Shown here in pieces: positions 194 to 33,153 of a DNA stretch of 59,567 nucleotides. The notes beneath the pieces were generated by a model. That model saw nothing but the letters and a program-made list of their open reading frames with translations, did not search any database and was not told the origin of the DNA. Both the position numbers and the translations under genes were made by a program. Positions within the stretch are counted from its first letter, which is position 1, and each line of letters starts with the position of its first letter. Origin of the DNA: Bacteroidota bacterium (lineage in GTDB: Bacteria; Bacteroidota; Bacteroidia; Cytophagales; Cyclobacteriaceae); contig JBDLIU010000001.1 of the NCBI GenBank assembly GCA_039714715.1, positions 1-59,567 of the forward strand, given 5' to 3'.

Positions 194-3100
194 TCAGGTT
201 GTTTCTACCTCTTTAGTCTTATGAAACTTATACTCATTTACTGCAGCCAGCACACTTATTATAGCTCCTATAACTAGAGCATAATAAACAAAAGTTGGAA
301 TCGGAATAGGATCACCTCCTGCATATGAATGCAATCCCGATAAATAGTAGTTCACTCCAAAGTAGGTCATCAGAACAGCACCAAAGCTTATGAATGACAT
401 GAAGTTAAATGTAAAATCGTTTCGTATAGATGGTATTAATGTAAGGTGAAGCGTTAGAGCATAAAGAACTATGGTAACTAAAGTCCAGGTCTCTTTTGGA
501 TCCCAGCCCCAGTACCTACCCCATGATTCATTAGCCCAAATACCTCCCAGGAAGTTACCTATAACCAAAAGCACCAATCCTGCCATTAGCGACATCTCTA
601 TTATTAATGACAATTCCTTAAGCGAAAGATCAACCTTTACCTGGTTCTTTTTCGTTCTGAAAATCATTACTAACAAATTGAGGAAAGCCACCATACAACC
701 CAACCCTAAAAAACCATAGCTGGCAGTAATTGTAGCAACATGGATGGTTAGCCAATAAGACTTTAATACTGGCACAAGATTGGTTAATTCAGGATTTAAC
801 CAACTCATATGAGCAGTTAACAGGGTCACCCCAGCTAACATAGCAGTTACCCCTAATGTAATAGATGACTTCTTCATAAAGATGAAACCAGCCAGAACTG
901 AGGCCCAGGCTATGTAAATCATAGATTCATATCCATTACTCCAGGGTGCATGGTCAGAAATATACCATCGAATACCCAAACCAATAGTTTGAGCTACAAA
1001 TGCGAGAATCATTAAAATGAGCAATGTCTGATTAATGCGTTTAAACTCAATCGATGGTTTAAATACCTGCAAGAAAAATATTCCAATTAAAAGAGAGCCC
1101 AGTAACAGGTAGACCGGAAACAATGTTTTAAATATATTGGCTTTATTATAGAATATTTCCATTTTGGCTTTTCTTGCTGAAGGTAGAATATTGGCACCTT
1201 TTTCTTTTTGGTAGCTAGTAATTGTTGCCAATGCGATACTTGCTTTCAGATAATTATTGGATTCTCTGCCAGCCTTAAGTAATTGAAGATAATTCTCAAA
1301 CAAATCTCCCTCTTCTGTTCCATGCCCCTTAAGTTGATGATGTTCAGCAGGAGTTGCCCATTTGTTATTAGGGTCGTTCTCTATAGGAAATATTTTAAGC
1401 ATAGAGCCGTTAAAAACCAAATAAAACACGTTTACTCTCTCATCAACGTTAATAAGCGCTTTATCTAACGTTGACCTAAGGGCAGGCTTTTTCATATGAG
1501 CTTGCTCAACCTGTGATCTTATTTTATATTGACCCTGCTCATTTATAAAGTCTGTGAAAGATGCCTGATCACCAACAATTCCTATCAAATTCTGTACACC
1601 TTTCTCCGACACCTTTATTACTGGTTCCTTTTGCCATTTTTCCTGGTCTGTAACTATACCAAGAAATACTTCTTCTGCAAGGAGTCCTTTGTAAGTTGAT
1701 TTCTTGCTTATTTTAACCAGCACTTTATTTGCCATTGTGTTAATTGGCTCAATTCTTCCTTCGAAATTCTGAACAAACAACTTACCAAAACTGCTGGCGT
1801 GTTCTTCTATCTGTATAGGCTCCTGTGCATATGATACCTGGCTACCCATACCAAGGATAAATAGGATCATTGCTATTGTAGTTAGCTGTTTACGCTTTTT
1901 ATGAACGTCATTTAATTGCATCGAAATTCTTCCAACCCTATTTTTCCGAATGAATAATGAAATAATCAAACTTGCAAAAAGTAAAAAATAACCGATATAA
2001 GTAATCAATGTACCCCAGTAATCATGATTAACTGATAGTATTGTTCCCTGTTCATCTCGATCGTATGAAGATTGAAAGAAGCGATAGCCGCCATAATTAA
2101 GTATGTTGTTCATGTATATCCGATACGGGAACTCCTTATTATTAAGGTTATCTATGACTGTAATTTCACTGGCATATGATGATGGACTACTTGATCCCGG
2201 ATATCGCTCTAAATCAAATTTGTTCAGTTTGATTGCAAAAGGTAACTTAATCATTATAGCTCCTACTGTAATCCCTAATTGAGTGTCATTTATGTTTACA
2301 TTTTTCCTTTGCCCGACAGGTATAATGTATTCGCCTTCGTTAACCTTTACCTTAACAGCAGGGATTCCTTGTTTTGAATTATCTGTAATTGCCTGGTACT
2401 CCATCTGCCCATGTTCGATATATTCCTTTATAACAAAAGAAGTACCCCCAACAGTATGAACAGTCATTTTTTGTACAGGATTAAAACCTTCAATTTGGAA
2501 AGGTGTATTTTCATCCTCCATGCTTGAGCTATTTACATTCATAGGCTCAGGAAATCTCATTAATAATTCACCATCTTTTTCGATTATCTGAATATATTTT
2601 GCTTTAGTGGTATCACCAAAACTGATACCAAAATCATGAATTATTTTCGAGTCGCCTTTTTTTAGTACTATTTCATGTCTTCCATCTTTACCACCTGCAA
2701 CAATGCTGATATACGAATCTCCCTCCTCAGTTTCAACCAATTTTTCTGCTGCATTGGGATAATACTTTAAAACTGATATTTCAAAAGCTCTATCTGACCA
2801 ATTATATGTCTGGTTAAAAAGGTTGTCAACTCCACTGGCCAAAAATACTTTTTCACTTAGTGTTTTAGAATGATCTTCCTCACCGAATTGAATTTCCAGA
2901 TAGGTTTCTGTAGACCGGAATACGCTGGAAGTTTGTTCAGCCCGGATGTGCATCTGGCCTTCATATCCAAAATACCGGGTTACACCTGCACCAATTATTA
3001 TTATTATCAATGCAATATGCATGATAAGGATATTCCATTTGCTTCTCAGGTATAGATGCTTGGTGACAATCATTCCAGAGAAATTTATAACCATAAGGAT

Positions 3101-3259
3101 TAGTAATATTTCAAACCACCTAGCATTATAAACCACCATTTTAGCAGCAATTGCTCCATTATCGTTTTCGACAAAAGTGGCATAACCTATTGCGAAAGCA
3201 AATACAGATAATAACAAGGCCATAAACCAGCCTGAGAATAGAAATTTAAATATCTTCAT
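194..3259 (-). CDS. ccsBA: fused system II cytochrome c synthase CcsBA (ResB-like N-terminal part plus CcsA haem-handling part)
   Basis: 1021 aa with multiple TM segments. The C-terminal third carries the Trp-rich WWD motif WGRYWGWDPKETW typical of CcsA/CcmF-type haem lyases. The long N-terminal part has the ResB/CcsB-like arrangement of TM segments flanking a large soluble loop. Confidence 0.85.
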   Translation of the reverse strand: MKIFKFLFSGWFMALLLSVFAFAIGYATFVENDNGAIAAKMVVYNARWFEILLILMVINFSGMIVTKHLYLRSKWNILIMHIALIIIIIGAGVTRYFGYEGQMHIRAEQTSSVFRSTETYLEIQFGEEDHSKTLSEKVFLASGVDNLFNQTYNWSDRAFEISVLKYYPNAAEKLVETEEGDSYISIVAGGKDGRHEIVLKKGDSKIIHDFGISFGDTTKAKYIQIIEKDGELLMRFPEPMNVNSSSMEDENTPFQIEGFNPVQKMTVHTVGGTSFVIKEYIEHGQMEYQAITDNSKQGIPAVKVKVNEGEYIIPVGQRKNVNINDTQLGITVGAIMIKLPFAIKLNKFDLERYPGSSSPSSYASEITVIDNLNNKEFPYRIYMNNILNYGGYRFFQSSYDRDEQGTILSVNHDYWGTLITYIGYFLLFASLIISLFIRKNRVGRISMQLNDVHKKRKQLTTIAMILFILGMGSQVSYAQEPIQIEEHASSFGKLFVQNFEGRIEPINTMANKVLVKISKKSTYKGLLAEEVFLGIVTDQEKWQKEPVIKVSEKGVQNLIGIVGDQASFTDFINEQGQYKIRSQVEQAHMKKPALRSTLDKALINVDERVNVFYLVFNGSMLKIFPIENDPNNKWATPAEHHQLKGHGTEEGDLFENYLQLLKAGRESNNYLKASIALATITSYQKEKGANILPSARKAKMEIFYNKANIFKTLFPVYLLLGSLLIGIFFLQVFKPSIEFKRINQTLLILMILAFVAQTIGLGIRWYISDHAPWSNGYESMIYIAWASVLAGFIFMKKSSITLGVTAMLAGVTLLTAHMSWLNPELTNLVPVLKSYWLTIHVATITASYGFLGLGCMVAFLNLLVMIFRTKKNQVKVDLSLKELSLIIEMSLMAGLVLLVIGNFLGGIWANESWGRYWGWDPKETWTLVTIVLYALTLHLTLIPSIRNDFTFNFMSFISFGAVLMTYFGVNYYLSGLHSYAGGDPIPIPTFVYYALVIGAIISVLAAVNEYKFHKTKEVETT

Positions 3260-3386: not shown

Positions 3387-5090
3387 TTAATAACTTCTAG
3401 TATTGGGTATAGTGTGATGAATGCCATCCCTTGCGTTATGGCACTCAATATTACATGTTCCCGTACCTGGTGAAATTAATTCGTAATATGAACCAGGGCT
3501 ATAAACAGCAGTACTCAAATTTATTAAGTATGAATTGTTCAATGTATTACCTCCCGGATATCCATGTGGATCATGACATGCATTGCATGACAAATACTTA
3601 AGAAAATGTCCTTGTTTCATATCATGAATGTTTAAGATAACATCCATATCATGACATTGAGCACATAATGCAAATTCTGTGGCTAATTCTGCTGCTGTGG
3701 GTGCCTTACTGAGATATTTATTGTTATCCATATTGTAATTAGCTTTTAATATCCGTGGATAAATAGATCCATGAGGTCCTGCAGGTACAGATAGATCACC
3801 ATCACTGGCATGGCAATCTGTACAGTATACCTGACTTGAAGCAGTGTAACCATTTATTAAGCCTCTTGGGCTTGGATTATTACCTGGCCCTACTACAGCG
3901 TGATGCGAAACATTTGTGGTTGCAAAATCTAGTCGCAGATTGTTACTGCCAAGTTCTCTTGCTGTATAACTAGATGTTACGGAATTATCTGAATGGCATC
4001 TAAAACAAAGTTCATATTCATTAACAATAGGACTAACAGGATTACCACTTAGGTCAATACCTTGAACGCCAGCTAATGCTCCACTTGCTAATGGAGCAGT
4101 TGCTGTGGAATTATTTGTTGCATGAGGATTATGGCAATCTGTACATTCAACATGAGGAGTTGCAATCATGGCGCCTTCCGTAGGATCATGCAGGTTATTG
4201 TACCCAAATACATTGTGAGAATACGTTTTGAGGGATTGAGTTTCTATATCGGTGGTTGCTACATTTCCATTATGACAATCAAGACAATTGTATTCATCGG
4301 TACTGGCTTTTAATAGCCTGGATTTACCTGTGGCAGTATGTGATGGATGGCAATTGGCACAAGCATTTTGACTAACATTGTTAAATGCATTTTCAATATG
4401 TGCCCATGGGTCAGTACCAGATCCATTCCAGGTAGAGAGCGAAGTGCTATGAGTAGAAGAAGACCAATAGTCTCGGTCATGACATTTAAAACATAATGCT
4501 GAATATTCTTTACTGGCCACCAGGAATTTAGTATTAATATTATCATGTGGATCATGACATGATATACACTGTACTTTTCCATTCTCTAAAGTCACAGGAA
4601 CTCCAATGTTTGCTGGCGTTTTTAATTGCCCGTCAGAAGTAGCCAGAGCTGGTGTATAAGTGAATGATACAGGATGGTCGTCACTTAGATCCGTAGTAAG
4701 ATTGCCTCTGTTAGAAGGGGGCATAACAGTGACACCTCCACTAAATGTAATATCAGTTGTTCTGCTTACTATTTCTCCAAGTGCGATGGTTCCATCGTGG
4801 CAGGAGAGGCAAAGTACAGCGGAGCCATCAGGTTGCCCGGGTGTTGCTTCGAGGGTTGAACTACTGTATAGAGTATAAGCAGAACCAGGGTCGTTCCTGT
4901 TCCATAGGGGAGAGGCAGGCCTGCTGGCATGAGGAGTATGGCAAAATATGCAAACTTCTGACTCGGATTGAGCTTTAATAGTACCGGGCCCCGCTACAGA
5001 TAGATCATGCAAAGTACCTACAACAGATTGCCCAATCACGTTGGATGTTAAAAGTAAACTCATTAATAGAACAGCAATATTTCCCCTCAT
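3387..5090 (-). CDS. secreted multihaem c-type cytochrome, 11 CXXCH plus 1 C-terminal CX3CH
   Basis: N-terminal signal peptide. CXXCH motifs counted by eye: CIFCH, CLSCH, CISCH, CFKCH, CANCH, CLDCH, CTDCH, CFRCH, CTDCH, CAQCH, CNACH. CNIECH lies 17 aa from the C-terminus. Confidence 0.9.
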   Translation of the reverse strand: MRGNIAVLLMSLLLTSNVIGQSVVGTLHDLSVAGPGTIKAQSESEVCIFCHTPHASRPASPLWNRNDPGSAYTLYSSSTLEATPGQPDGSAVLCLSCHDGTIALGEIVSRTTDITFSGGVTVMPPSNRGNLTTDLSDDHPVSFTYTPALATSDGQLKTPANIGVPVTLENGKVQCISCHDPHDNINTKFLVASKEYSALCFKCHDRDYWSSSTHSTSLSTWNGSGTDPWAHIENAFNNVSQNACANCHPSHTATGKSRLLKASTDEYNCLDCHNGNVATTDIETQSLKTYSHNVFGYNNLHDPTEGAMIATPHVECTDCHNPHATNNSTATAPLASGALAGVQGIDLSGNPVSPIVNEYELCFRCHSDNSVTSSYTARELGSNNLRLDFATTNVSHHAVVGPGNNPSPRGLINGYTASSQVYCTDCHASDGDLSVPAGPHGSIYPRILKANYNMDNNKYLSKAPTAAELATEFALCAQCHDMDVILNIHDMKQGHFLKYLSCNACHDPHGYPGGNTLNNSYLINLSTAVYSPGSYYELISPGTGTCNIECHNARDGIHHTIPNTRSY

Positions 5091-5093
5091 TTC

Positions 5094-6104
5094 TTACTCA
5101 TGATTAATTAATTGAAAAACCTGTACCCGGGCATTATAGCTATCGGCTACATAAATAAAATCATTCTTATCTATATAAATTCCAGTTGGCATCCAGAAGT
5201 CTCCAGGTTCACGGCCCTGTTTTCCAAAATTATATAGTAGTTGTCCTGCCTTATTAAATATCTGAATTGTATGAAAAAGGGCGTCTGCCACGTAAATATT
5301 ACCATGAGAATCTGTAGCAATGCCCTTCGGCCTGGCAAAGTAGCCGGTTGCATCTCCGGCCTCGCCAAACATGTACACCCACTTTCCATCCTTGTCAAAT
5401 ATTTGTATTCTGAAATTCATGGAATCCACAATATATACCATCTCATTTTCATCAATCCATATATGGGTGGGGTAGTTGAATTCTCCTGCAGAAACTCCTC
5501 TTAACCCAATTGTTCTTACTTTTTCGCCTTGCAAATTCAAAATACTTATTTGGTGATTCTTTGTTTCAAGTACCCAAATTTCTTTTTTACTTTCCAGGTA
5601 AGCTATACCTGTTGGTTGGTTCAATTTAAGGGAGTCGTTTAGTATTGATGCTGACTTACCATCTGAAAAAATGAAATATATTGTGTTGTTTCTTGAATCA
5701 GTTACCAGAAACCCTTTGCCTGGAAGCTCACATAATCCAACTAACGAGCTGGGTGGCAATTCAAGCTTTGACCTTGGTTTCAAATTTTTCCCTTTTTGTT
5801 CCTTAATATAAGCAAGAGAGACTCTTTTTTGATCTAGTACATAATAATCTTCCGGGTTGATAGCAATAATTGCCATAGGTTTTGCGAGTACAACAGGTTT
5901 GGGCCCAATTATAAACTCACCTAAACGACTAAAAAGTCCTTTTTTATTTTTTCTCTTTTCCATGGAAGGAAATTGACTTACCCATCTGATATGTTTTAAT
6001 GAATTTTTCTTAGTGCTATCTGCGATATTGTCTTGAGCTATGGAAACAGTACTCCCAAGTATTAAAACAACTATAAGCAAATACTTTAATAATACAGATT
6101 TCAT
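5094..6104 (-). CDS. secreted NHL-repeat beta-propeller protein
   Basis: Signal peptide. Repeated NHL-type blades: IYIVDSMNFRIQIFDKDG, IYVADALFHTIQIFNKAG, IYVADSYNARVQVF. There is a 3-bp gap to the downstream cytochrome gene. Confidence 0.8.
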   Translation of the reverse strand: MKSVLLKYLLIVVLILGSTVSIAQDNIADSTKKNSLKHIRWVSQFPSMEKRKNKKGLFSRLGEFIIGPKPVVLAKPMAIIAINPEDYYVLDQKRVSLAYIKEQKGKNLKPRSKLELPPSSLVGLCELPGKGFLVTDSRNNTIYFIFSDGKSASILNDSLKLNQPTGIAYLESKKEIWVLETKNHQISILNLQGEKVRTIGLRGVSAGEFNYPTHIWIDENEMVYIVDSMNFRIQIFDKDGKWVYMFGEAGDATGYFARPKGIATDSHGNIYVADALFHTIQIFNKAGQLLYNFGKQGREPGDFWMPTGIYIDKNDFIYVADSYNARVQVFQLINHE

Positions 6105-6134
6105 AATATGTTTTGAATTGCTCTCAATATTTAT

Positions 6135-7547
6135 CTAATCTTGCAAATCTCCTCTTTCATATTCAAGCTTTTCATGGCATCCTGTTTGACAAGAACCACC
6201 TTTATCTGTAAATTCAAACTTAATGGGCATCTTCCAATTACCATACATTGCATATTTTTTAATCATATGTTTGTTTTCACCACCATGCATATCATGGCAT
6301 AAGTTGCAATTTCTGCCTCGATTTCCTCTGATATGTATATAATGCAGGTTTTTATTGCCATCTCTGAAATTTGTGGCGGATACTGTGGTTGGAGATTCAA
6401 AAAGTTCATCTTCATGACAATGAAAACATAAACTAAAGTTATCTACAGTAGCAACAGAATATTGCTCCAAAGGGTACTTCATAGTGAGCAATTTAAGCTC
6501 ATTAGAGGCATGTGGCTTGTGACATACACTGCATTGTGATAAAGCAACTGGTCCGTGTAGCACATTACCTTCTTTTAAACTTGGACTTATAGCCAGGATA
6601 CTACCATTTATACCATCTATATCTTTATCATGGCACGATAAACACACCTCCTTCTCTGTACCAACTAATATATTTACATTCTTAGAGCCATGAGGTTTAT
6701 GACAGTTAAGGCATCCTTTACCTTTGTTTATGGCACCATGCACAGTTTTAGATTCATTAATCTCAGTGTGCGTATCTTCGTGGCAGTCTAAGCATAATTT
6801 TTCAGTTTTTATGTCTGAGAGATGGGCCTCTTTTGAGCTATGTCCATTGTGGCAACTGAAGCAATCCTTCTTTTCAAATGGGCTGTGGAGATAGTCCAAC
6901 TTAAATTCCTTACGCAATGGCCGGTGGCACTTCCTGCACAACCTGTCAAGTTTGCTGGTATTCATAAACTCAGCATTATCTGCATCATGTGGGTTATGAC
7001 ACCCTGTGCAATTGCCATTTGTTATTGCACCATGCACCATATTACCCTCCGGTATTTTCAAATCATGACATTCGTAACATAGATCTGATACAGGATCTTT
7101 TTTAACCAGGTACATATTTTTAGAATTATGAATATCATGACATAATAGACAATTTCCTTCCCCGGTGGGCCCATGAACAAACTCTTTCTCAGTTTTTGGA
7201 TCATGACATTCATAACATAGCTTAGGAACCTTTTTCTTTAGTTTAAAAGTAGCCTGGGCTTCGATAGGGTGCTCAACTCCTTTAGAGACATGACACCTCA
7301 TGCAATCCTTTTTGTCAGGGGCATGGACAACCTCACTTTTGAGAATATCATCATGACAATCATTACAGTTCATTAGTGAATCTGCAAGTATGTCTATGTT
7401 AAAACTACCTGATTCCATTATAGCAACAGGGTTACTTATTGATGTTGAAGGAACACCTGTAACACTAACCGTTGATTCTTTAATGGGTTCGTTGCTGGTT
7501 GTAAAAAGTGACCAAAGCCAAATTAAGAGTATAAGTTTATCCATCAT
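6135..7547 (-). CDS. secreted multihaem c-type cytochrome, 14 CXXCH plus 1 C-terminal CX3CH
   Basis: Hydrophobic N-terminus. CXXCH motifs: CNDCH, CMRCH, CYECH, CLLCH, CYECH, CTGCH, CRKCH, CFSCH, CLDCH, CLNCH, CLSCH, CSVCH, CFHCH, CNLCH, plus CQTGCH near the C-terminus. They are organised as seven di-haem modules. Confidence 0.9.
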   Translation of the reverse strand: MMDKLILLIWLWSLFTTSNEPIKESTVSVTGVPSTSISNPVAIMESGSFNIDILADSLMNCNDCHDDILKSEVVHAPDKKDCMRCHVSKGVEHPIEAQATFKLKKKVPKLCYECHDPKTEKEFVHGPTGEGNCLLCHDIHNSKNMYLVKKDPVSDLCYECHDLKIPEGNMVHGAITNGNCTGCHNPHDADNAEFMNTSKLDRLCRKCHRPLRKEFKLDYLHSPFEKKDCFSCHNGHSSKEAHLSDIKTEKLCLDCHEDTHTEINESKTVHGAINKGKGCLNCHKPHGSKNVNILVGTEKEVCLSCHDKDIDGINGSILAISPSLKEGNVLHGPVALSQCSVCHKPHASNELKLLTMKYPLEQYSVATVDNFSLCFHCHEDELFESPTTVSATNFRDGNKNLHYIHIRGNRGRNCNLCHDMHGGENKHMIKKYAMYGNWKMPIKFEFTDKGGSCQTGCHEKLEYERGDLQD

Positions 7548-7556
7548 TCAGTCAGT

Positions 7557-9509
7557 TTAAAATTTTCTATCTATCTGAAAGTATATTCCTTTAAAGTTTA
7601 GTTCTTCTCCAATGTAATTTCTTCTATAAACCTCAAAACCTAATCGTGCATATAAATTGCGAAAAGATGTATTTGCTTCCAATTTTGCCGTGATCATATC
7701 AAGGTCGATTTGCTCACCAACCTGTTTGCGATAACCTATATCAAAATCCAGCTTGGTTTTGGGTTTAATCATATATACCATTTTACCAAAAATGCTGGCA
7801 TATAGTTGAGGTATCCTTTCCAAAGTTATCTTTTGGTCTGTTACACTCCCATTTAATGAAAGCAGCAATTTTTTACCTGCCTTGCCCGACATTCTTAATG
7901 AATATAAGAATCTGTCATAGGGTACTATTGAACTCCTGTAGTCATCACGCTCTACACCAGCAGTTATTGCCCAGATATTTACTCTTACACCATAGGAATA
8001 ACGATCAAAATAATTCAGACTGATAAGTTCTGATCCTTCAAGATCTGAGTAATCCTGGTTAGACAATGAGTAAAATAATTCGAGGTGATTATCAAGGATG
8101 TTGAAACGCACTGTAAAAGCATTAAAACTTGAAACAAACTGATAACTACCTATTTGATCTGTAGTGTAATCAACAAGGACTGCACTACCGTTGGCAATTT
8201 GACCCCCAGGTATGCGAACCAGCTCAACAAAACCATTTCTCTCAATAAGTATGTAATCAAACCCTTCATCATAGATGATTACTCCCAATGCATCCTTAAC
8301 GACTACAGTTTCAATTCTTACATAAGGTTGATTAAGCAATATAATTTCCCCATCACTTAATACCTGTTGTTCATCTATTATCTGTATAGTTTTATTCGAG
8401 TCCCCGATTACAGCCTGGTTATGACGTCTATAGCTGTAAATCAATCCAAATGTGCCTGTAGGAATCTTTTTTGCGTAATTAATGCTTCCTCCAAAGCGCA
8501 AATTAGTTTCATCGAAGCTGGTGTGATCATTGGTGCTGTAATCATAAAAAGCATCAGTTTTTAAACTATTAAATAGCTGGTGCTGTAAATTAATATTAAT
8601 CCTATTTAAACGGTTTCCCTGTATTCTTTGCTGAATATCAAATAACTGGTATGATCCTCCAAGTCTGAATTGAAAAGGTAATTTCAAATCTATAGATTCA
8701 CGCAATTGAAACCTGACCTGGTCAACTGTACCGGTTTGATCAAGGTTGTTAATATATGACCGGAACATATATCGTTTATTCCTGTCTAAGTAGTATCGAT
8801 TAATTATGTTGATCGATTTGAATATGTTATGGGTTTCTGTCAGGTTAGCTTCTCTTCTAAAAAAGTCATTATGCCTTACAAGTATTTCATTTTGATCATT
8901 GTATTTAGTAAATGATTTACTTGCTCTTGCTTCAAAATTCTTTTGATCATTGAAATAATTCCTGTTAGTCTCCAGTTCCTCCTGATCCCATTTTCTATTA
9001 TTATAACTGATTGTTACAGGCAGGATTTTATTGCGAAAATTATATTTTAAACCCCAATTCTTACTGTCAGTTTTTGTGCTTGATACATATTCTCTATTAA
9101 TCAGATTCCTTGCCAAATTAATATAGGCTATCAGGTTCATGGGCTTGGAGTTAAAGAATATTCCCTGAATATCCAGCTTTGATATATTGAGTACCTCAGA
9201 GCGGTCGGGGCTGACAGTATATCGTTGATTGGCGGTGCCTGGATTATATTCTCCACCAATATTTAACAATAATAAATTAGGATGGAGAACATAACTGTTT
9301 GTGTTTAAGGCAATACCACCATATAAAAATGGATAATATGAATATTCCTCAAAGTTTTTAAGCACTCTTTCCTGTTCTCTATAAAATCCTCTAATACCCA
9401 CATAACCACTATAATTTGTTAATTTCCAGGCTCGAAACTCGTTAGTCTGTTGTGCAAATACCTGGTGGCAAATGATTGTAATGAGTAATATGGTGACAAT
9501 GTTCTTCAA
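7557..9509 (-). CDS. large outer-membrane beta-barrel protein (porin-like partner of the cytochromes)
   Basis: Signal peptide MKNIVTILLITIICHQVFAQQ. 650 aa rich in N/Y/R/F with alternating hydrophobic patterns, and a C-terminal ...YFQIDRKF ending in Phe, as in OM barrels. There are 9-bp gaps to multihaem genes on both sides. No family assignment was possible by eye. Confidence 0.65.
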   Translation of the reverse strand: MKNIVTILLITIICHQVFAQQTNEFRAWKLTNYSGYVGIRGFYREQERVLKNFEEYSYYPFLYGGIALNTNSYVLHPNLLLLNIGGEYNPGTANQRYTVSPDRSEVLNISKLDIQGIFFNSKPMNLIAYINLARNLINREYVSSTKTDSKNWGLKYNFRNKILPVTISYNNRKWDQEELETNRNYFNDQKNFEARASKSFTKYNDQNEILVRHNDFFRREANLTETHNIFKSINIINRYYLDRNKRYMFRSYINNLDQTGTVDQVRFQLRESIDLKLPFQFRLGGSYQLFDIQQRIQGNRLNRININLQHQLFNSLKTDAFYDYSTNDHTSFDETNLRFGGSINYAKKIPTGTFGLIYSYRRHNQAVIGDSNKTIQIIDEQQVLSDGEIILLNQPYVRIETVVVKDALGVIIYDEGFDYILIERNGFVELVRIPGGQIANGSAVLVDYTTDQIGSYQFVSSFNAFTVRFNILDNHLELFYSLSNQDYSDLEGSELISLNYFDRYSYGVRVNIWAITAGVERDDYRSSIVPYDRFLYSLRMSGKAGKKLLLSLNGSVTDQKITLERIPQLYASIFGKMVYMIKPKTKLDFDIGYRKQVGEQIDLDMITAKLEANTSFRNLYARLGFEVYRRNYIGEELNFKGIYFQIDRKF

Positions 9510-9518
9510 ATAACTACT

Positions 9519-10358
9519 TTATCTTAAAAAGAACTGATTTTCTCCTCCATGAGGATTGTGGCAATTTAAACAATCATCTATTCCGGGGACCTGATGCTCC
9601 TTATTCATAAATATGGTTGATTCCGTATGACATCCCAGGCAAAGTTCAGGAGCGGCATCTATTAGTAAACCTTTACTGCCTGTACCATGGTCTGAATGAC
9701 AAGTTGTGCAGTAATTACCGGCTACTGGACCATGTAGAAAACTATAATCCCGAACCTTCTTATCATGACATTGATAACAGGCATCTGAGGTTAATAAATA
9801 TCCGTTATCGCTACTATGTGGACTATGACAAGTGAGACATTCTCCTTTTTTGTTTTTCTTTTGATGTATAACGGTCTGTTCAGTAAGCTGCTGATCATGA
9901 CAGGTATAACAAAGCTTTTCTCCTCCTGCAATTAACAAACCTTTTTCTTCTGATTTATGGGGATTATGGCATGAAGAGCAATAACCCCCTCTAACCGGCC
10001 CATGACGCACCATATCAAAACTTGCCAGGCCAACATGGCATTCAATACATAAGTCAGGTTCTTCTTTAACTAACTGTCCCATATGTTGCTCACTATGACA
10101 ACTAGCACATTCTTTTGTCAGATAAGGGAGATGATAATATGTTCTTTTTGTGTTATCAGGAACATTTGTTGAATCCTTATTGGTTGTATCAACCTGTTTT
10201 AAGGTGTCTGCTTTAGCTGTTAATTCCGGGGATTCTAAAGGTGGAACACCATCAAAAATAGTTTTTAGAATAGCATGCCTGGCAGTTGGTGAGCATGCTA
10301 CCAACATAAGCAAAATTATACCTATTATAATGATATGTTTATTGCCCAGGTTTAGCAT
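9519..10358 (-). CDS. 9-haem c-type cytochrome lipoprotein
   Basis: Lipobox LMLVAC. CXXCH motifs: CASCH, CIECH, CSSCH, CYTCH, CLTCH, CYQCH, CTTCH, CLGCH, CLNCH. It has four di-haem modules of the same type as the 470-aa protein. Confidence 0.9.
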   Translation of the reverse strand: MLNLGNKHIIIIGIILLMLVACSPTARHAILKTIFDGVPPLESPELTAKADTLKQVDTTNKDSTNVPDNTKRTYYHLPYLTKECASCHSEQHMGQLVKEEPDLCIECHVGLASFDMVRHGPVRGGYCSSCHNPHKSEEKGLLIAGGEKLCYTCHDQQLTEQTVIHQKKNKKGECLTCHSPHSSDNGYLLTSDACYQCHDKKVRDYSFLHGPVAGNYCTTCHSDHGTGSKGLLIDAAPELCLGCHTESTIFMNKEHQVPGIDDCLNCHNPHGGENQFFLR

Positions 10359-10365
10359 ATTACCG

Positions 10366-11436
10366 TCAGGGTGTTTCTTTTATATAACCATATATACTGA
10401 GCTTATCGGGTCCGAAATTGTTAGTTACCAGGATTAGATATTGCAGTTCATAATGACTATCAACGTATTGTTCAAAATACTCAAGGCCAGTATAGCTAAT
10501 ACTGACTTTAGCGGGTAACCACATATCTCCCGGCCCTTCGTAGCTACCCCCAAAGAACATCAAGAGCCTGCCTTCTTTATCAAACATTTGCACGTTTTCA
10601 AAGGCCGCATCTACAACATATAAAATGCCTTCTTTATCTACAGCTATACCTTTAGGTCTAACAAATTGTCCTATTGATCGTCCGTACCTGCCTATTTTTT
10701 GAATATATTTCCCCTTGTGGTCATATATTTTTATGTTAAAGGCTCCAAAGTCGCTTACATAGAGTCTATTATCAGTGACATAGATATTTGTAGGTTGACG
10801 TATTTTTTCATCTTGGCTTATACCTCCATCAATCGAGTAGAGATGCTTATAAGTACTATCTTTTTGATAAACATCTATGGCGCCTTTAGCCACATTGGCC
10901 ACCCATATTTTATCTGAGGTTACAAATACATCAGTGGGTTTATCTTCAGTTGCTCCCCCGAGACTATTAACATATTCAAGGTTATTATCATAAATAACTA
11001 CCTGTTTCCTTTTAGAGTCTGCTACATAGAGATAACCCAGGGAATCAACGAATGAATTGATGGGCAATTTAAGCTGACCAAGACCTTTTGGGACAAAATA
11101 CTCAAAAGTTTTTTGATCCATATCCATTATTTCCAGACCAGCTATATCAAGATCACATAAATAGATTTTATTGCCATGCATTGTTATGCCATAAGGCTTT
11201 TTGATAGGCTTTGGAGGATCTTCGCCAACCAGAAATTTATTAAAAGAAGATTTAGGCTTTACAACATTTTCAGATGTGCTGATACTGGCAAGGTACTGTA
11301 TCCTGGCCTTATCCGGTGGTGTTGGATATACTATTGTTGGATTAGATTGCTGTGGAATTTTGTTTGCGCACGAAAAAAAGGTGATTACAAAGAATACTGC
11401 AGCAAGCAGTCTTATCCCAACCGTAATGTCTTTCAT
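10366..11436 (-). CDS. NHL-repeat beta-propeller lipoprotein
   Basis: NHL blades: LYVADSKRKQVVIYD, LYVSDFGAFNIKIYDHKG, LYVVDAAFENVQMFDKEG. The track ORF begins at a TTG (11457). The ATG at 11436 gives MKDITVGIRLLAAVFFVITFFSC, a typical lipoprotein signal, so I use that start. Confidence 0.75.
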   Translation of the reverse strand: MKDITVGIRLLAAVFFVITFFSCANKIPQQSNPTIVYPTPPDKARIQYLASISTSENVVKPKSSFNKFLVGEDPPKPIKKPYGITMHGNKIYLCDLDIAGLEIMDMDQKTFEYFVPKGLGQLKLPINSFVDSLGYLYVADSKRKQVVIYDNNLEYVNSLGGATEDKPTDVFVTSDKIWVANVAKGAIDVYQKDSTYKHLYSIDGGISQDEKIRQPTNIYVTDNRLYVSDFGAFNIKIYDHKGKYIQKIGRYGRSIGQFVRPKGIAVDKEGILYVVDAAFENVQMFDKEGRLLMFFGGSYEGPGDMWLPAKVSISYTGLEYFEQYVDSHYELQYLILVTNNFGPDKLSIYGYIKETP

Positions 11437-11552
11437 ATTACATTTGGTATAATTCAAATAATACTAATGTTGGTTGTGAGCGATTACTTTCAAATATGAA
11501 AAATAATGACCTTATAATCCATGACCTTTATCAGGTAATTATTATAAGAAGG

Positions 11553-11581
11553 ATTTAAAAAAAGGCGGGAATACCGCCTTT
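11553..11581 (-). terminator. rho-independent terminator after the tetrahaem cytochrome gene
   Basis: Stem aaaggcgg (11561-11568) / ccgccttt (11574-11581) with a 5-nt loop. On the minus strand a run of 7-8 T follows it. It lies 23 bp downstream of the stop at 11604. Confidence 0.8.
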
Positions 11582-11603
11582 AAATTAATAATTATTTTAA
11601 TAA

Positions 11604-12215
11604 TTACTTATTATGGCATGTCAGACAAAGTGCACTTCCAGCATTATCTATTCTAAGTAAATATGCGAATCCTGCATTGTGCACGTCATGGCAAGAACCA
11701 CATTCAAGAGACCCGCCAAATAGTAAATCGGCATCTATAGTGCTTCCTAAACCACTATCTTGTGTAGATGGGTTATATAATTCTCCATCTGCTGTTGCTA
11801 AGGCAGTATTGTATGTAAATGAAATTGGGTGGTCATCAGAGAGGTCAGTTCCCAGATCACCTGTTGTTACAGAGGCAGTACCAGTTGTTGTGCCTCCAAA
11901 GTTTTCTAATGCCACAGTGCCATCATGGCAGCTTAAGCAAAGCTTTGAGGAGCCACCTGGTTGGCCGGTTGTAGCATCCATTGTTCCACCACCAGTGTAC
12001 AAAGTGAAAGTTGCAGTAGATGTCACTTCATGGTTCCACAGGGGTGCGTTACCCACTGTAGTATTAGAACTGTGTGGTGTATGGCATACAATACAAATCT
12101 CAGTGTTAACTGTCCATGTTTCTCCACTGAAATCATGCGCAGACCCTGTGATTTGGGCAAACCCGTATTGCGCAATACCAAATACTAGTAAAAGGGCAAA
12201 AGTTCGTTTCATCAT
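11604..12215 (-). CDS. secreted tetrahaem c-type cytochrome, stand-alone copy of the N-terminal four-haem region of the 567-aa cytochrome
   Basis: Signal peptide ending FAQ. Motifs CIVCH, CLSCH, CGSCH, CLTCH. It aligns by eye with residues ~25-215 of ORF 3387-5090: HDxS, C(I)xCHTPH, PLWN, GQPxGS..LCLSCHDGT(I/V)AL, DLSDDHP(I/V)SFTY, ALAT(A/S)DG. Confidence 0.9.
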   Translation of the reverse strand: MMKRTFALLLVFGIAQYGFAQITGSAHDFSGETWTVNTEICIVCHTPHSSNTTVGNAPLWNHEVTSTATFTLYTGGGTMDATTGQPGGSSKLCLSCHDGTVALENFGGTTTGTASVTTGDLGTDLSDDHPISFTYNTALATADGELYNPSTQDSGLGSTIDADLLFGGSLECGSCHDVHNAGFAYLLRIDNAGSALCLTCHNK

Positions 12216-12296: not shown

Positions 12297-12340
12297 GTGT
12301 AAATTTCGTTAATAGGCATTATTTACACCCTATTTACACC
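12297..12340. promoter_or_regulatory. candidate operator upstream of the tetrahaem gene: inverted repeat plus tandem direct repeat
   Basis: GTGTAAAT (12297-12304), 16 nt, ATTTACAC (12321-12328). TATTTACACC also occurs twice in tandem (12320-12329 and 12331-12340, 11-bp register). The element lies 82-125 bp upstream of the start at 12215. Confidence 0.35.
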
Positions 12341-12635: not shown

Positions 12636-13316
12636 TTACTTAAGAATTTTCGCTTCTTCTATAATAATTTCATAGAAATAACCTGAGCCCAGGTTTTTGT
12701 TTAGTACAACCTTACCTTCTATTACCAATACCTTTCCAATTGTTGTAATTTCATTAGTTGTAACAGTAATGTCATTTTTTTCGGGTTGGTCATCTTGAAG
12801 ATGTAACCAGTTTTTACCCATAATTCCTACATTGTACTTAGCCACTCTACCACTTATTTTTACGCTTTGGCCTTCATATTTATTTTTGTTGGTTAGGAGT
12901 TCGCTTATAGAAATTCCTCCCTCTGGTACAATAATTTTTATACCTGGATCTGCTAAGGCTAGGGCACTTTTTTTTGCTTGTTCCATCGTTTTGGCGCTTT
13001 GAATGCCCTGTAGAAAGAAAATAGAATCGAAGACCCTATCCAGTTCAGTGCTTTTAAAACCCCTCATTTCAAAACCACCTGTGTAATAATATTCTTCTCC
13101 TATAGCTGCTTCAATTCTGGGCAAAGCAAACCATTGTAAATTACCATTTTCATTACCCAATAAATAGGTGTATGAGGTTGTTTGCAAAACCTCCTCTACC
13201 AGGATTTTATTAATATTAGATGACTTATGAGCGTTATTTTGTGCATCATTTTGTGCAAAAGAGATTAAACTTATCTGCAATAAGATTAAGGTGAGTGTAT
13301 GCTTTTTATCGATCAT
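12636..13316 (-). CDS. secreted hypothetical protein, possible C-terminal OB-fold-like domain
   Basis: Signal peptide ...LISFAQ. The C-terminal segment YEGQSVKISGRVAKYNVG...VLVIEGKVV resembles small OB-fold (tRNA_anti-like) proteins. No catalytic motif was recognised. Confidence 0.5.
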   Translation of the reverse strand: MIDKKHTLTLILLQISLISFAQNDAQNNAHKSSNINKILVEEVLQTTSYTYLLGNENGNLQWFALPRIEAAIGEEYYYTGGFEMRGFKSTELDRVFDSIFFLQGIQSAKTMEQAKKSALALADPGIKIIVPEGGISISELLTNKNKYEGQSVKISGRVAKYNVGIMGKNWLHLQDDQPEKNDITVTTNEITTIGKVLVIEGKVVLNKNLGSGYFYEIIIEEAKILK

Positions 13317-13352: not shown

Positions 13353-15416
13353 TTATTGAACCAATATTAAAGGATGAGACCATATCCAGGCTCCGGTTAT
13401 GGCTTTCCATTTTTCTTCACCAGTATTAATGTCAAGACCATACAGATTACCATCGTTAGACCCAAAAAACACTTTACCGTCAAAAACAGAAGATCTTGAA
13501 GCAATAGCACCATCAGTTTCAAATTCCCATAATAATTTTCCAGTGTTTGAGTTCAGGCAATAAAAAACTTTATCCCAGCTTCCGAATAATATTCGTCCAT
13601 TGCTAACAGAAACACCTGCAGAAATCATGCCCTTAGATTCAAATTCCCAAATTTTATCACCATTATCGGCCTTCAAACAATATAATACTTGATCAGTTGA
13701 GCCAAAATACACTTTATTATCAATAATATATGGTTTGGCCCAAACCTTATTTCCTGTCTTGAATTTCCATTTTACTTTACCGGATTTTGCATCAAGACAA
13801 TACAAGTATTTGTCTTTGGATCCAATATATATCTTGCTATCACTGAATGCTGGATTAGACGAGATCCAGTTACTGGCCTCAAAGTCCCAGATTTTCTTTC
13901 CTGATAATACATCTATACAATAAATGTGCTTATCTCGTGAGCCAAAATATACTTTATCATTTTTAATTAATGGGCTTGAGTAAACCCAGTCATTGCAAAT
14001 AAACCTCCAGATTTCCTTACCGGTATCAGTTGATAAGCAATATAGATTATTGTCTGTAGACCCAAAAATAACTCTTGATTTCTCAATAGCAGGGCTCGAA
14101 TGAATCCATCCCCCAGTTTTCACTTTCCAAATAGCTTGGCCAGTAACAATATCCACGCAGTACATAAAGCCATCCTTGGAACCAAAGTAAAGTCTATCAT
14201 TGTAAAGTGTTGGATTAGTAGTGACAGCCCCACCAGTTGGAAATTTCCATAGTATTTCACCAGAGTTATTGTCCAAACAATAAATGTTTTTATCCCAACT
14301 ACCGAAGAAAATCCGATCATCAGCAATCAGACCACTCGAAGAAACTTCTCCTTTGGTGTCAATCTCCCAGAGTTTTTGTCCCGTCATAAAATTTAGACCA
14401 TACAGCTTATTGTTGGCAGTGCCAAACATAACCATTTTGCCCACTATACGAGGATTTGATCGTGACCATGCACCTATGTTAGTCTTCCAGACTTCTTTTC
14501 CTGTCTTAACATCAAGGCAATAAAAGTTTTGGTCTTTAGAACCAAAATAGATTAACTCATTTTTAATAACAGGACTAGACCAAACCCAGCCTAAAGTTTT
14601 ATAACGCCACTCCAGAACACCTGTCAAGATATTAACAGCATATAAGTATCCGTCTTTTGACCCAAAATAAATTTTATCATTTTCATAAGCAGGTTTTGAA
14701 TAAATCCACCCATTAGTTTCAAATCGCCAGTTAAGGGTGCCATCTTGCGCATTTATGCTATATAAGTAGTTATCTTTTGACCCTGCATAAACTGTTCCGT
14801 TTACGACCATTAAACTTGAATGAATCCAATTATTGGTCTTAAATTTCCAGTTTGCTTTACCACTAACAGCACTTAAGCAATATAGAGTATTATCTTTTGA
14901 TGCAAAGTACACCTTATTATCGTATAATACGGCACTTGTATAGATCCAGTCATCAGTATGATATCGCCATATTTCCTTTCCAGTAGCTAAGTCAAGACAA
15001 TAGAAATTTCTATCCTTAGAGCCAATATATACTTTGCTGTCTTGAATTATTGGGCTAGCGTAAACCCAATCTTCGGTTTTAAATCTCCATAATTCATTTC
15101 CATTATTAATGTCAATACAGTATATACTATTGTCTGATGACCCAAATATTGCTTTGCCATTATACATAGCAGGACTTGAATGAATCCAACCCTCAGTACT
15201 AAATTTCCAAACTTCTCTTTTTGAAGTTATATCAATACAATACAAATTGTTATCGTATGATCCAAAAATAATACGCCCTTTGGGTATCCCTGTACTAGCA
15301 GAATCGGTCAATTCTGAATATGGGAATAATCCAATTAACAGGTTTACGAAGATTAACGGTATATAGTTAATCATACCAATTATTAGGTTGCTGTACATTG
15401 ATAACACAAATGACAC
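13353..15416 (-). CDS. PQQ-like (BamB-type) beta-propeller repeat protein, 16 tandem 40-aa blades, N-terminal hydrophobic anchor
   Basis: From residue ~49 to the C-terminus there are sixteen consecutive 40-aa units of the form (I/V)(Y/F)FGSxDxxLYCLDxxTGKExWxFxTxxWIxSSPxxxxxK with no indels. This is typical of the PQQ_2/BamB repeat class. Confidence 0.8.
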   Translation of the reverse strand: MSFVLSMYSNLIIGMINYIPLIFVNLLIGLFPYSELTDSASTGIPKGRIIFGSYDNNLYCIDITSKREVWKFSTEGWIHSSPAMYNGKAIFGSSDNSIYCIDINNGNELWRFKTEDWVYASPIIQDSKVYIGSKDRNFYCLDLATGKEIWRYHTDDWIYTSAVLYDNKVYFASKDNTLYCLSAVSGKANWKFKTNNWIHSSLMVVNGTVYAGSKDNYLYSINAQDGTLNWRFETNGWIYSKPAYENDKIYFGSKDGYLYAVNILTGVLEWRYKTLGWVWSSPVIKNELIYFGSKDQNFYCLDVKTGKEVWKTNIGAWSRSNPRIVGKMVMFGTANNKLYGLNFMTGQKLWEIDTKGEVSSSGLIADDRIFFGSWDKNIYCLDNNSGEILWKFPTGGAVTTNPTLYNDRLYFGSKDGFMYCVDIVTGQAIWKVKTGGWIHSSPAIEKSRVIFGSTDNNLYCLSTDTGKEIWRFICNDWVYSSPLIKNDKVYFGSRDKHIYCIDVLSGKKIWDFEASNWISSNPAFSDSKIYIGSKDKYLYCLDAKSGKVKWKFKTGNKVWAKPYIIDNKVYFGSTDQVLYCLKADNGDKIWEFESKGMISAGVSVSNGRILFGSWDKVFYCLNSNTGKLLWEFETDGAIASRSSVFDGKVFFGSNDGNLYGLDINTGEEKWKAITGAWIWSHPLILVQ

Positions 15417-20008: not shown

Positions 20009-20035
20009 AGGAATATTCTCAGCTATTGCAACAAT

Positions 20036-21160: not shown

Positions 21161-21624
21161 TTATTTATATCGAAATTTATTTTTTTAATAATATTATTTT
21201 GAATTTGATCCAGTACCATTATTGTTTTTACCAAATCTTCGCTACTGATGTTGTCCTGCAATTCTTTCATAATCTTCTCCAAAACAGGTAAAGAATTATT
21301 GAAAACATCTTTTCCTAACGTGCTAAGATGTATATGGTTTATTCTTTTATCTTGTTTGCATAGCTCTCTGTAAACCAGATCTTTTTTCTCCATTGTATTT
21401 ATAAGCCTTGTTAAAGATGTTTTTGAACGATTCGTAATAAATGCCAATTCGTTTTGGGTTTGACCATCCTCATCTTTAAGCTTTTTAAGAATCAGCCACT
21501 GCTCAATAGATAAATCGATTCCATTTTCATGGAATGTATCATTAAAGTAGTAACCAGACAGCTTGGCTGTCTTTCCTAAACTAGGAAGGAGCGTTTTTTC
21601 AAATATACTGGGATACACAATCAT
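21157..21624 (-). CDS. MarR-family transcriptional regulator
   Basis: 155 aa with a winged-HTH region QNELAFITNRSKTSLTRLINTMEKKDLVYR. It is the first gene of the efflux operon. Confidence 0.85.
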   Translation of the reverse strand: MIVYPSIFEKTLLPSLGKTAKLSGYYFNDTFHENGIDLSIEQWLILKKLKDEDGQTQNELAFITNRSKTSLTRLINTMEKKDLVYRELCKQDKRINHIHLSTLGKDVFNNSLPVLEKIMKELQDNISSEDLVKTIMVLDQIQNNIIKKINFDINK

Positions 21625-28918: not shown

Positions 28919-28936
28919 TCATATAAAATCAAGTTG

Positions 28937-31186: not shown

Positions 31187-31192
31187 CAATTA

Positions 31193-32224: not shown

Positions 32225-32264
32225 CTAACAAATACAATTAATTATAATTTAAACACGCAAATTC

Positions 32265-33062: not shown

Positions 33063-33153
33063 ATAATTAGAAATAATATAATAATCCGGTTAAGGCTAGT
33101 TCAATTATTGGATTATCCTTTCCGGATTTTTTTATGTTTGTTAAATTTGATAT

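Follow-up and report, generated by a model that had tools for sequence, protein, structure and literature searches.

The stretch of DNA analysed here, referred to as the window (59,567 nucleotides of contig JBDLIU010000001.1, from a Bacteroidota bacterium), carries at its beginning a cluster of eight minus-strand genes that extends from position 12215 down to position 194. The cluster probably encodes an outer-membrane electron-transfer module of the Uet/OmcE type, namely, a conduit that feeds extracellular cytochromes of the OmcE family. This type of cluster is widespread; it has already been named (Uet, for undecahaem electron transfer), it is partly described from omcE loci and from Desulfovibrio ferrophilus, and it is still uncharacterised. 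The genes were delimited with an open reading frame (ORF) map, translations, and motif counts, and the window proteins were scanned with Pfam and NCBIfam. In the order of transcription, the features of the cluster are the following:

11604-12215, minus strand: T4, tetrahaem cytochrome, 203 amino acids (aa), 4 CXXCH.
11561-11581, minus strand: terminator-like hairpin with T-run, an 8-bp GC-rich hairpin directly 3′ of the T4 stop codon.
10366-11457, minus strand: NHL1, NHL β-propeller lipoprotein, 363 aa, Pfam NHL/DUF5128, FFSC lipobox.
9519-10358, minus strand: C9, 9-haem lipoprotein cytochrome, 279 aa, 9 CXXCH, LVAC lipobox.
7557-9509, minus strand: BB, large outer-membrane β-barrel, 650 aa, C-terminus RKF.
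6135-7547, minus strand: C14, cytochrome, 470 aa, 14 CXXCH and 1 CX3CH, Sec signal, no lipobox.
5094-6104, minus strand: NHL2, NHL β-propeller, 336 aa, signal peptide, no lipobox, Pfam NHL E 7e-30.
3387-5090, minus strand: C11, undecahaem cytochrome, UetJ-like, 567 aa, 11 CXXCH and 1 CX3CH.
194-3259, minus strand: CcsBA, fused ResB and CcsA, System II haem lyase, 1021 aa, PF05140 and PF01578, TIGR03144.

The gaps between the eight genes measure, in the same order, 146, 7, 9, 9, 30, 3, and 127 bp, and the haem sites amount to 38 CXXCH and 2 CX3CH. A preliminary description of the window had reported the order of the six genes from NHL1 to C11 on one strand, with gaps of 3-30 bp, and the same number of haem sites over the four cytochromes; both were reproduced. 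The fused CcsBA that it placed after a 127-bp gap is borne out by the PF05140 and PF01578 domains, and profile searches likewise confirmed the paired-CXXCH cytochromes and the NHL repeats and gave no family for the barrel. It had also described a separately terminated tetrahaem gene. The hairpin and T-run are indeed present (11581-11561), but T4 is not a separate neighbour, being the conserved first gene of the unit. As regards gene starts, for NHL1 an ATG at 11436 (MKDITVG...FFSC) is more plausible than the TTG at 11457, whereas the start of C11 is ambiguous (5063-5090), a public gene call giving 558 aa from the second Met as compared to the 567-aa ORF.

The relationship to OmcE is seen in two of the cytochromes, T4 and C11. 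In a phmmer search of the PDB sequences, T4 matches the OmcE filament chains 9yuq_N (E 6e-25) and 7tfs_A (E 1e-24), and residues 5-205 of C11 match the same two chains with E 1e-22 and 9e-31, respectively. 7TFS is taken by us to be the filament entry of Geobacter sulfurreducens OmcE, and, consistently, a protein 98% identical to the 7tfs_A chain is GSU0618-like in G. sulfurreducens. 9YUQ is the nanowire bundle of Desulfuromonas soudanensis OmcE, the G. sulfurreducens OmcE filament having been the first OmcE structure to be solved (bioRxiv 10.1101/2025.10.22.684050). T4 was aligned with three orthologues, both OmcEs, and the N-terminal modules of three C11 proteins (alignment A2). Four CXXCH motifs and four distal histidines (H27, H48, H129, and H179 of T4) are invariant in this alignment; these eight haem ligands are features that the OmcE authors list as conserved (bioRxiv 10.1101/2025.10.22.684050). 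The first conserved His lies 6-8 residues past the predicted cleavage site in mature T4, C11, and OmcE. T4 is accordingly classed here as a predicted secreted tetrahaem cytochrome of the OmcE family, belonging to a UetA-like subfamily.

C11 is composite. Residues about 22-206 make up the OmcE-like four-haem module, and the remainder holds 7 more CXXCH motifs and has a partial similarity to domain II/IV of MtrC/MtrF (PF22113, E 3e-15). With seven or eight further haems joined to its OmcE-like module, C11 would be a natural adaptor between the conduit and T4. A fusion of this type, with a seven-haem extension, is found in every copy of the core and is an obvious candidate for the base or the tip of a filament. 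By analogy with OmcE, C11 and T4 are the presumed outer components of the module. Homologues of C11 number more than 6,700 and are 50-60% identical across lineages of the Fibrobacteres-Chlorobi-Bacteroidetes (FCB) group. The CX3CH motif is kept in 52 of 53 C11 orthologues and in 26 of 32 orthologues of C14; given this conservation, the two CX3CH motifs are probably real extra haem sites.

Further OmcE-family proteins occur in related loci, which are designated below by the prefix L. Extra paralogues are present in many relatives (L009, L034, L036, and L050 among them). In the closest listed relatives, a second tetrahaem gene lies between C14 and NHL2 (L007:6668-7282, L011:16470-17099, and L029:11756-12373), and the window is without it. 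In loci of Melioribacteraceae and Calditrichota, five-haem versions of the family follow C14. These additional T4-like proteins may be minor, tip, or cap subunits.

Among 65 related loci, 36 have a terminator-like hairpin after T4, whereas after the other cluster genes it is found in 6/68, 3/30, 1/29, 2/31, 3/59, and 8/59 loci, that is, in no more than 14%. Such a placement is typical of the gene for a major subunit that precedes the genes for its assembly. The conserved terminator favours an abundant and hence oligomeric T4, which is probably made in excess of the other parts.

C9 and C14 resemble the decahaem MtrA. C9 is matched by Paired_CXXCH_1 (E 3e-46), and its best PDB match is 6r2q_A, an MtrA chain (E 1.5e-15), which is also matched by C14 (E 3e-13). 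The molecule name given to chain A of 6R2Q, “Cystathionine beta-synthase,” is wrong, the chain being the 333-aa decahaem MtrA, and it could mislead automated annotation. The TIGR03508 model (MtrA/DmsE) scores 117.6 bits with C9 and 118.1 bits with C14, against a cut-off of 192.2, and both proteins are MtrA-related haem wires rather than members of the MtrA/DmsE family. For TIGR03507 (OmcA/MtrC), the score is 33.9 bits against a cut-off of 209.3. C9 has a conserved N-terminal FDGVP segment, and in the surveyed loci the gene immediately upstream of the barrel is always its orthologue, with 5 or 9 haems. Because its gene ends 9 bp before the barrel gene and the protein is MtrA-like, C9 is the best candidate for a cytochrome inserted in the barrel.

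The sidedness of these proteins can be approached from their N-termini. In Bacteroidota, the export rule for surface lipoproteins is such that a lipoprotein without acidic residues after the Cys points to the periplasmic face. No acidic residues follow the lipobox Cys in C9 or in NHL1, which suggests that C9 faces the periplasm and that NHL1 probably does likewise. C14 is probably periplasmic: a Sec signal is present and a lipobox is not, and one orthologue (L001:11970-13349) ends in an OmpA peptidoglycan-binding domain, which no other lineage was seen to have fused to it.

The two NHL propellers are paralogues (28% identity, E 5e-27), as had been stated earlier. An NHL1 orthologue directly follows T4 in 67 of 80 loci, with a lipobox-like Cys in 46 of the 67 orthologues, and NHL2 is always paired with C11, the pair being kept in 57-61 of the 80. 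The propellers had been regarded as an oddity of this cluster; they are instead canonical parts of the published Uet and minimal omcE inventories.

The barrel was modelled with AlphaFold2 from an alignment of 76 sequences, with a mean predicted local distance difference test score (pLDDT) of 90.6. The model has 29 long strands assigned by DSSP, the likely total being 28-30, and a non-barrel insert of ~80 residues (about 374-458), which appears in the model as a small β-rich element at about residues 385-455. The insert is the best-conserved segment of the protein and is recognisable from Bacteroidota to a Geobacter metagenome-assembled genome (MAG) and a Thiodiazotropha symbiont; at this size, it is too small to plug a barrel of ~29-30 strands, so the objection of a small or plugged barrel, raised in the preliminary description, does not arise. 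A match of the insert to an NCBIfam “phage tail tube” model is weak (25 bits against a cut-off of 60). When compared by Foldseek with the PDB, the model retrieves only generic large barrels, the top TM-score (0.47) being that of MtrB (6r2q_B, 649 residues). A profile of the barrel finds nothing below E 0.1 among all PDB sequences, the best match being noise at E 0.17. The same profile was run against 1.84 billion representative proteins, as clusters at 50% identity, and retrieved 2,601 relatives at E ≤ 1e-3, of which 1,183 reach E ≤ 1e-30; among the members of this family that were scanned, none carries a Pfam domain.

The conservation of the gene order is extensive. A collection of species-representative genomes was scanned with the OmcE-family alignment, and at least 591 relatives were confirmed; for the synteny counts, the best 80 loci of these were annotated by BLAST with the window proteins. 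The recurring order is T4, NHL1, a small cytochrome (5 or 9 haems), the barrel, an optional C14-like cytochrome, NHL2, and C11, with the NHL2-C11 pair upstream in some loci, and the same order had already been seen in the contexts of three barrel homologues. The full core (T4, NHL1, barrel, NHL2, and C11) is present in 39 of the 80 loci and in 29 of the 35 that are at least 19 kb long. Since the order is kept in dozens of unrelated genomes, the cluster is not a chance arrangement.

The surveyed loci fall under about 14 phylum-level labels, as given by the depositors. Within the Bacteroidota, the labels are Cyclobacteriaceae, Saprospiraceae, Chitinophagaceae, Lentimicrobiaceae, Crocinitomicaceae, Bacteroidales, and Ignavibacteria/Melioribacteraceae. 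The others are Calditrichota, Gemmatimonadota, Verrucomicrobiota, Kiritimatiellota, Acidobacteriota, Omnitrophota, Spirochaetota, Planctomycetota, Sumerlaeota, Deferribacteres, Bdellovibrio, Desulfobacterota (Geobacter and Desulfocapsa), and Gamma- and Betaproteobacteria. Among the matches listed, the closest are from Cyclobacteriaceae and unclassified Bacteroidota MAGs (barrel 52-54%, T4 63-67% identity); the Bacteroidota background proposed in the preliminary description is thereby supported indirectly, through these best matches and the typical neighbouring genes. Aestuariivivens sediminicola (Flavobacteriaceae) has the full set including CcsBA, and a similar fused CcsBA adjoins the cluster in L005, L011, L020, L037, L038, and L087. 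In a Geobacter MAG (L061), BLASTP homologues of the six non-Ccs parts other than C9 are found in the same layout, with E values from 2e-9 (barrel) to 3e-138 (C11). Its gene at the C9 position encodes a protein of 283 aa with five haems that is only 22% identical to C9, and the best match of C9 in this locus is the C14 orthologue.

According to the reading favoured here, electrons would be transferred from an inner-membrane quinol dehydrogenase encoded elsewhere to periplasmic C14 and from C14 to C9, which would be lipid-anchored on the periplasmic face of the outer membrane and lie in or under the barrel, as MtrA does in MtrB. C11 would take up the electrons on the outside. Its OmcE-like N-terminal module would dock to T4, which would be made in excess and probably form an oligomer or a filament that reaches out from the cell. 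Scaffolds or chaperones for the assembly or export of the haem-loaded cytochromes would be provided by NHL1 (with its anchor on the periplasmic side), NHL2 (as partner of C11), and the insert of BB, and CcsBA would mature the ~40 haem sites. Whether minerals are reduced or electrons are taken up from them is not readable from the sequence; the flow is uptake in Tenderia and D. ferrophilus and reduction in Geobacter.

The closest named counterpart is the Uet cluster of “Candidatus Tenderia electrophaga”/Tenderiales. It consists of the tetrahaem UetA, the prolyl isomerase UetB, the barrel UetC with 28 predicted strands, the trihaems UetD/E/G, the cupredoxin UetF, the NHL proteins UetH/I, and the undecahaem UetJ, followed by ccsA and ccsB, and its expression differs with electrode potential (bioRxiv 10.1101/2022.05.06.490989). 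A Uet cluster is also found in some Gallionella. Common to both clusters are the tetrahaem cytochrome, a barrel of ~28 strands, two NHL proteins, an undecahaem with 11 CXXCH, and downstream genes for System II haem lyase. The likeness to the Tenderia proteins (ALP54622-ALP54630) is one of architecture, to which homology to proteobacterial loci of the same layout is added: gamma- and betaproteobacterial loci with a Uet-type core are 45-58% (T4) and 37-46% (C11) identical to the window. However, by Pfam and NCBIfam, the cluster genes of the window include neither a peptidyl-prolyl isomerase (UetB) nor a cupredoxin (UetF) nor a trihaem c7 (UetD/E/G); the window has instead the 9-haem lipoprotein, the 14-haem MtrA-like cytochrome, the fused CcsBA, and a different gene order. 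In two gammaproteobacterial loci, L072 and L073, trihaem genes do occupy the corresponding position.

The second counterpart is the omcE locus. A minimal omcE cluster has been described, which is said always to comprise two multihaem cytochromes, two β-propeller lipoproteins, OmcE, and a large barrel, near resB/ccsB, and OmcE homologues with such neighbours have been reported from five phyla, Bacteroidota not being among them (bioRxiv 10.1101/2025.10.22.684050). The Desulfuromonadia loci (GSU0618 region; DSOUD_2954) share with the window an OmcE-family tetrahaem with the eight ligands, NHL proteins, MtrA-like cytochromes, a large barrel, and adjoining resB/ccsB. In G. sulfurreducens, the 9-haem MHC370 is homologous to C14 (5e-60), NHL361 to NHL2 (1e-41), and CcsB to CcsBA (1e-31), NHL2 being the closest relative in the window of the NHL lipoprotein that precedes omcE. 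This locus differs in having no undecahaem C11, in its glycosylation genes, and in a 752-aa protein at the position of the barrel that has no detectable homology to BB. The window cluster thus appears to be a relative of the Geobacter omcE cluster and not its orthologue.

In D. ferrophilus IS5, the clusters DFE_0448-0451 and DFE_0461-0465 are alike by description, with multihaem cytochromes interleaved with NHL propellers that are proposed to stabilise an outer-membrane cytochrome complex. They are induced under electron-donor limitation, when the cells take up electrons from an electrode (PMC5815863). They differ in that no porin or barrel has been reported in them (PMC9769857). In D. ferrophilus, deletions of single cytochromes did not abolish the reduction of Fe(III) oxide (PMC9769857). 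MtrCAB of Shewanella and the porin-cytochrome complex (Pcc; OmaB-OmbB-OmcB) of Geobacter share with the window a barrel gene flanked by multihaem genes, MtrA-like paired-CXXCH proteins (C9 and C14), and a barrel of MtrB length. Nevertheless, the lipoprotein in the window is the small inner cytochrome and not the outer one as in MtrCAB, and there are no scores at cut-off for MtrB/PioB, DmsE, or OmcA/MtrC. The two NHL propellers and the two OmcE-family modules are without a counterpart in Mtr and Pcc, and BB has about 29-30 strands as compared to 26, in addition to its insert. The haem counts of Pcc (8-haem periplasmic and 12-haem lipoprotein cytochromes) and the position of its lipoprotein also differ, as judged by description.

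A likeness in concept only is offered by the omcS-companion (osc) operon of G. sulfurreducens, where the gene of a filament cytochrome is accompanied by channel-like proteins and a β-propeller-like protein. A passage of PMC13194489, with reference to Shen et al. 2025, gives the proposal that these companions fold, secrete, and shape the OmcS nanowire. OmcS, however, is a hexahaem without sequence similarity to OmcE. In a preprint of 2026, “porin-scaffold-cytochrome” clusters with OmcE-like cytochromes are described in Acidobacteriota and Verrucomicrobiota.

Against this background, the proposal of the preliminary description that the cluster is a trans-outer-membrane conduit holds insofar as it is a cytochrome/barrel module of the extracellular electron transfer type (MtrA-like C9 and C14, MtrB-sized barrel), but not insofar as it was presented as an unexplained variant of Mtr or Pcc. 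The statement that no existing model explains its composition was mistaken: the Uet inventory and, in part, the omcE inventory match it, and the OmcE modules in T4 and in the N-terminal third of C11 had been missed.

Several findings weigh against the reading of a conduit that feeds a T4 polymer. No member of this cluster type has been reconstituted or localised, and the roles of Uet and of the D. ferrophilus clusters rest on expression data. T4 has a ninth conserved His, H62 (in PLWNH), which is His in 71 of 80 members of the subfamily and Arg in both solved OmcEs; it could satisfy all four T4 haems within one subunit, arguing against polymerisation. T4 does not appear to be a strict orthologue of OmcE. 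On average, the G. sulfurreducens OmcE lies at a distance of 0.65 from the T4 group and of 0.65 from the group of C11 N-terminal modules, the D. soudanensis OmcE at 0.69 and 0.69, and this equidistance points to three sister subfamilies, a neighbour-joining tree placing OmcE on the side of the C11 modules. Moreover, T4 and C11 are 40-67% identical across phyla, as compared to 21-39% for the barrel, a degree of conservation that is unusual for surface cytochromes. For C11, the model obtained with AlphaFold2 (63-sequence alignment) has a pLDDT of 48.5 and is unusable, which leaves the docking of C11 to T4 without structural support.

The barrel and the electron source count on the same side. BB is MtrB-sized and is not a member of the MtrB/PioB family, as no match to any MtrB/PioB model of Pfam or NCBIfam was obtained at E ≤ 0.01. 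It has no detectable homology to the 752-aa protein of the G. sulfurreducens omcE locus, either by BLASTP over the barrels of 85 loci or by hhalign of that protein against profile A1 (probability 0.3%), and the 752-aa protein lacks the insert; simple orthology of the two clusters was dropped for this reason. Finally, no quinol dehydrogenase was found in the cluster or in the Pfam-scanned ORFs of the window, a few smaller ORFs being outside the scan and the window stopping 193 bp past CcsBA. Its absence from the cluster had been stated in the preliminary description and is confirmed by Pfam.

How the cytochromes reach the surface is the point on which the first alternative turns. The earlier remark that the lipoprotein is the small haem-dense cytochrome, and that the large ones have neither lipobox nor type IX secretion system (T9SS) domain, is correct: no lipobox was found on C14 or C11, and no Por_Secre_tail or other C-terminal T9SS domain was found by Pfam on any cluster protein, and a T9SS route was rejected on this ground. 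The route to the surface, described as unexplained, is so in that no signal was found; it is not peculiar to this cluster, the same question having already been posed for OmcE and OmcS. It is conceivable, though doubtful, that the barrel is mainly a secretion and anchoring usher for OmcE-family cytochromes and not an MtrB-like sheath, in which case C9 and C14 would do no more than pass electrons to the foot of the cytochromes that it exports. A Sec signal is present in T4 and in C11, a lipobox or T9SS domain in neither, and a dedicated route out is therefore needed. An usher would also agree with the ~30 strands of BB, which exceed those of MtrB, and with the fact that its most conserved part is the non-barrel insert, as expected of a substrate-handling element. 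In addition, export through a porin-like route, assisted by propeller proteins, has already been hypothesised for OmcS and OmcE (bioRxiv 10.1101/2025.10.22.684050; for OmcS, the passage in PMC13194489). On the other hand, the C9-barrel gene order, the 9-bp gap, and the MtrA-like nature of C9 fit the model of MtrA inserted in MtrB, no energy source or usher-like domain was found in the cluster by Pfam, and secretion and conduction are not mutually exclusive.

The ninth His of T4 leads to another alternative, a finite heteromeric conduit in which T4 would cap the OmcE-like module of C11 once and the chain of C9/C14, barrel, C11, and T4 would carry ~40 haems, similarly to Mtr and Pcc with a longer outer arm. 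The OmcE authors found no candidate for a base, tip, or stopper in the omcE operons, and the filament stopper that they predict is an OmcE-like protein with nine His for four haems (bioRxiv 10.1101/2025.10.22.684050), as is the case for the T4 subfamily. In view of this agreement, a finite capped complex is kept as a serious rival, unlikely as it is. The eight-His pattern is kept only by the module of C11 and not by T4, and T4 is as far from the real OmcE as that module is. Conversely, the conserved terminator implies a large excess of T4 over C11, which is needless for a 1:1 cap, and the extra T4-like paralogues with 4 or 5 haems found in many loci could be the minor or cap subunits instead.

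A more far-reaching proposal, which we regard as improbable, is that the seven-gene core is an ancient, self-contained machine that exports, anchors, and wires an OmcE-type polymer in about 14 phyla; in it, the C11 module would be the base or tip subunit on which T4 polymerises, the nine-His T4 would ligate its subunits differently from Geobacter OmcE, and the barrel, its insert, and the NHL proteins would act together as the usher.

The least credible alternative, and a very improbable one, is a periplasmic multihaem redox enzyme complex, with one or both NHL propellers catalytic or substrate-binding and the barrel importing the substrate, for which hydrazine synthase and cd1 nitrite reductase are precedents as propeller-plus-multihaem enzymes. 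The high conservation of T4 and C11 as compared to usual surface cytochromes (PMC12977616) and the lack of a recognisable surface-targeting signal would agree with it, but a motif scan found no CXXCK in any cluster cytochrome, as stated previously, Pfam and NCBIfam gave no cofactor-binding family beyond NHL in the cluster, and the closest solved relatives of T4 and C11 are extracellular filaments. Also against it are the responses of the related clusters, Uet and those of D. ferrophilus, to the conditions of electrode or electron donor, and the size of a 30-strand barrel, which is far beyond what a channel for a small substrate requires.

With respect to the literature searched, the new elements are the presence of the cluster in many families of Bacteroidota and in several phyla besides, a large and distinct barrel family without a Pfam model and with a conserved insert, the OmcE-like start of the undecahaem, the ninth His of the tetrahaem subfamily, and the conserved terminator after T4. 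The way in which haem-loaded OmcE and OmcS cross and attach to the outer membrane, and the role of the ever-present NHL propellers, are stated gaps in the field, and the core is found far beyond the five phyla so far listed for OmcE homologues. If the reading of a self-contained polymer machine were true, the core would supply the missing initiation, anchoring, and secretion parts of the OmcE field, and cytochrome nanowires would be present in ordinary marine Flavobacteriaceae. As A. sediminicola carries the complete set, these questions are genetically testable outside Geobacter. The window itself is one more member of the family, and its value is that of an entry point rather than of a new kind of system.

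Upstream of T4, two further genes deserve mention as potential accessories:

12636-13316, minus strand: up226, secreted 226-aa protein, no Pfam, NCBIfam, or PDB match.
13353-15416, minus strand: PQQ/BamB-like multi-bladed β-propeller, 687 aa, Pfam PQQ_2/Beta-prop_ACSF4.

Homologues of up226 (31-49% identity) lie beside the cluster in L001, L005 (two copies), L011, L050, L080 (two copies), and L087 (two copies), and the protein is probably an accessory of the cluster in the version found in the FCB group. In genomes of this group, two homologues often occur as tandem paralogues, and examples of the gene are located at L087:18848-20316, L005:15545-17009, L080:14742-16147, and L011:8771-9484. The link of the 687-aa propeller is weak; homologues with 50% identity are found upstream of T4 in L011 and L029, the two closest among the loci listed, and it is a possible accessory.

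Candidate redox partners accompany the cluster in a few other genomes. An NrfD-like membrane subunit, a 4Fe-4S protein, and a membrane-anchored tetrahaem are found beside it only in L005 (1149-3561, minus strand) and L071 (4190-6760), and they are a candidate entry point for quinol oxidation; a c554-like soluble tetrahaem is present in L019, L028, and L038. Nothing comparable to either was found among the scanned ORFs of the window. In L001, a sigma-54-dependent two-component system (L001:4275-7138) lies between the NHL2-C11 pair and T4, and in a distant relative a protein of ~2,730 aa with NHL and BACON repeats follows the cluster (L003:10977-17781).

Three of the four copies of GTGTAAAT in the window (two direct, one inverted) are grouped within 43 bp at 12297-12339, 80-125 bp upstream of the T4 start codon. 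They may be a regulator site; copies are not kept upstream of T4 in the related loci.

Elsewhere in the window, the Pfam-scanned ORFs comprise a resistance-nodulation-division (RND) efflux operon, peptidases, haem-uptake genes, PriA, EF-G, and transport genes. The RND operon (outer-membrane factor, AcrB-like pump, and membrane-fusion protein) lies with a MarR regulator at 15526-21624 on the minus strand, between the cluster region and the rest of the window, and appears to be unrelated to the cluster. A haem-acquisition set occupies positions 28037-34086 on the plus strand and consists of a ChaN-like haem-binding protein, a TonB-dependent receptor, an HmuY-like protein, an unknown protein, and a third NHL protein (310 aa). 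As these haem-uptake genes, at 28-34 kb, are 16 kb off and behind the efflux operon, they were left out of the cluster. It is nonetheless conceivable that they supply the ~40-haem system, and a ChaN homologue flanks the cluster also in L001.

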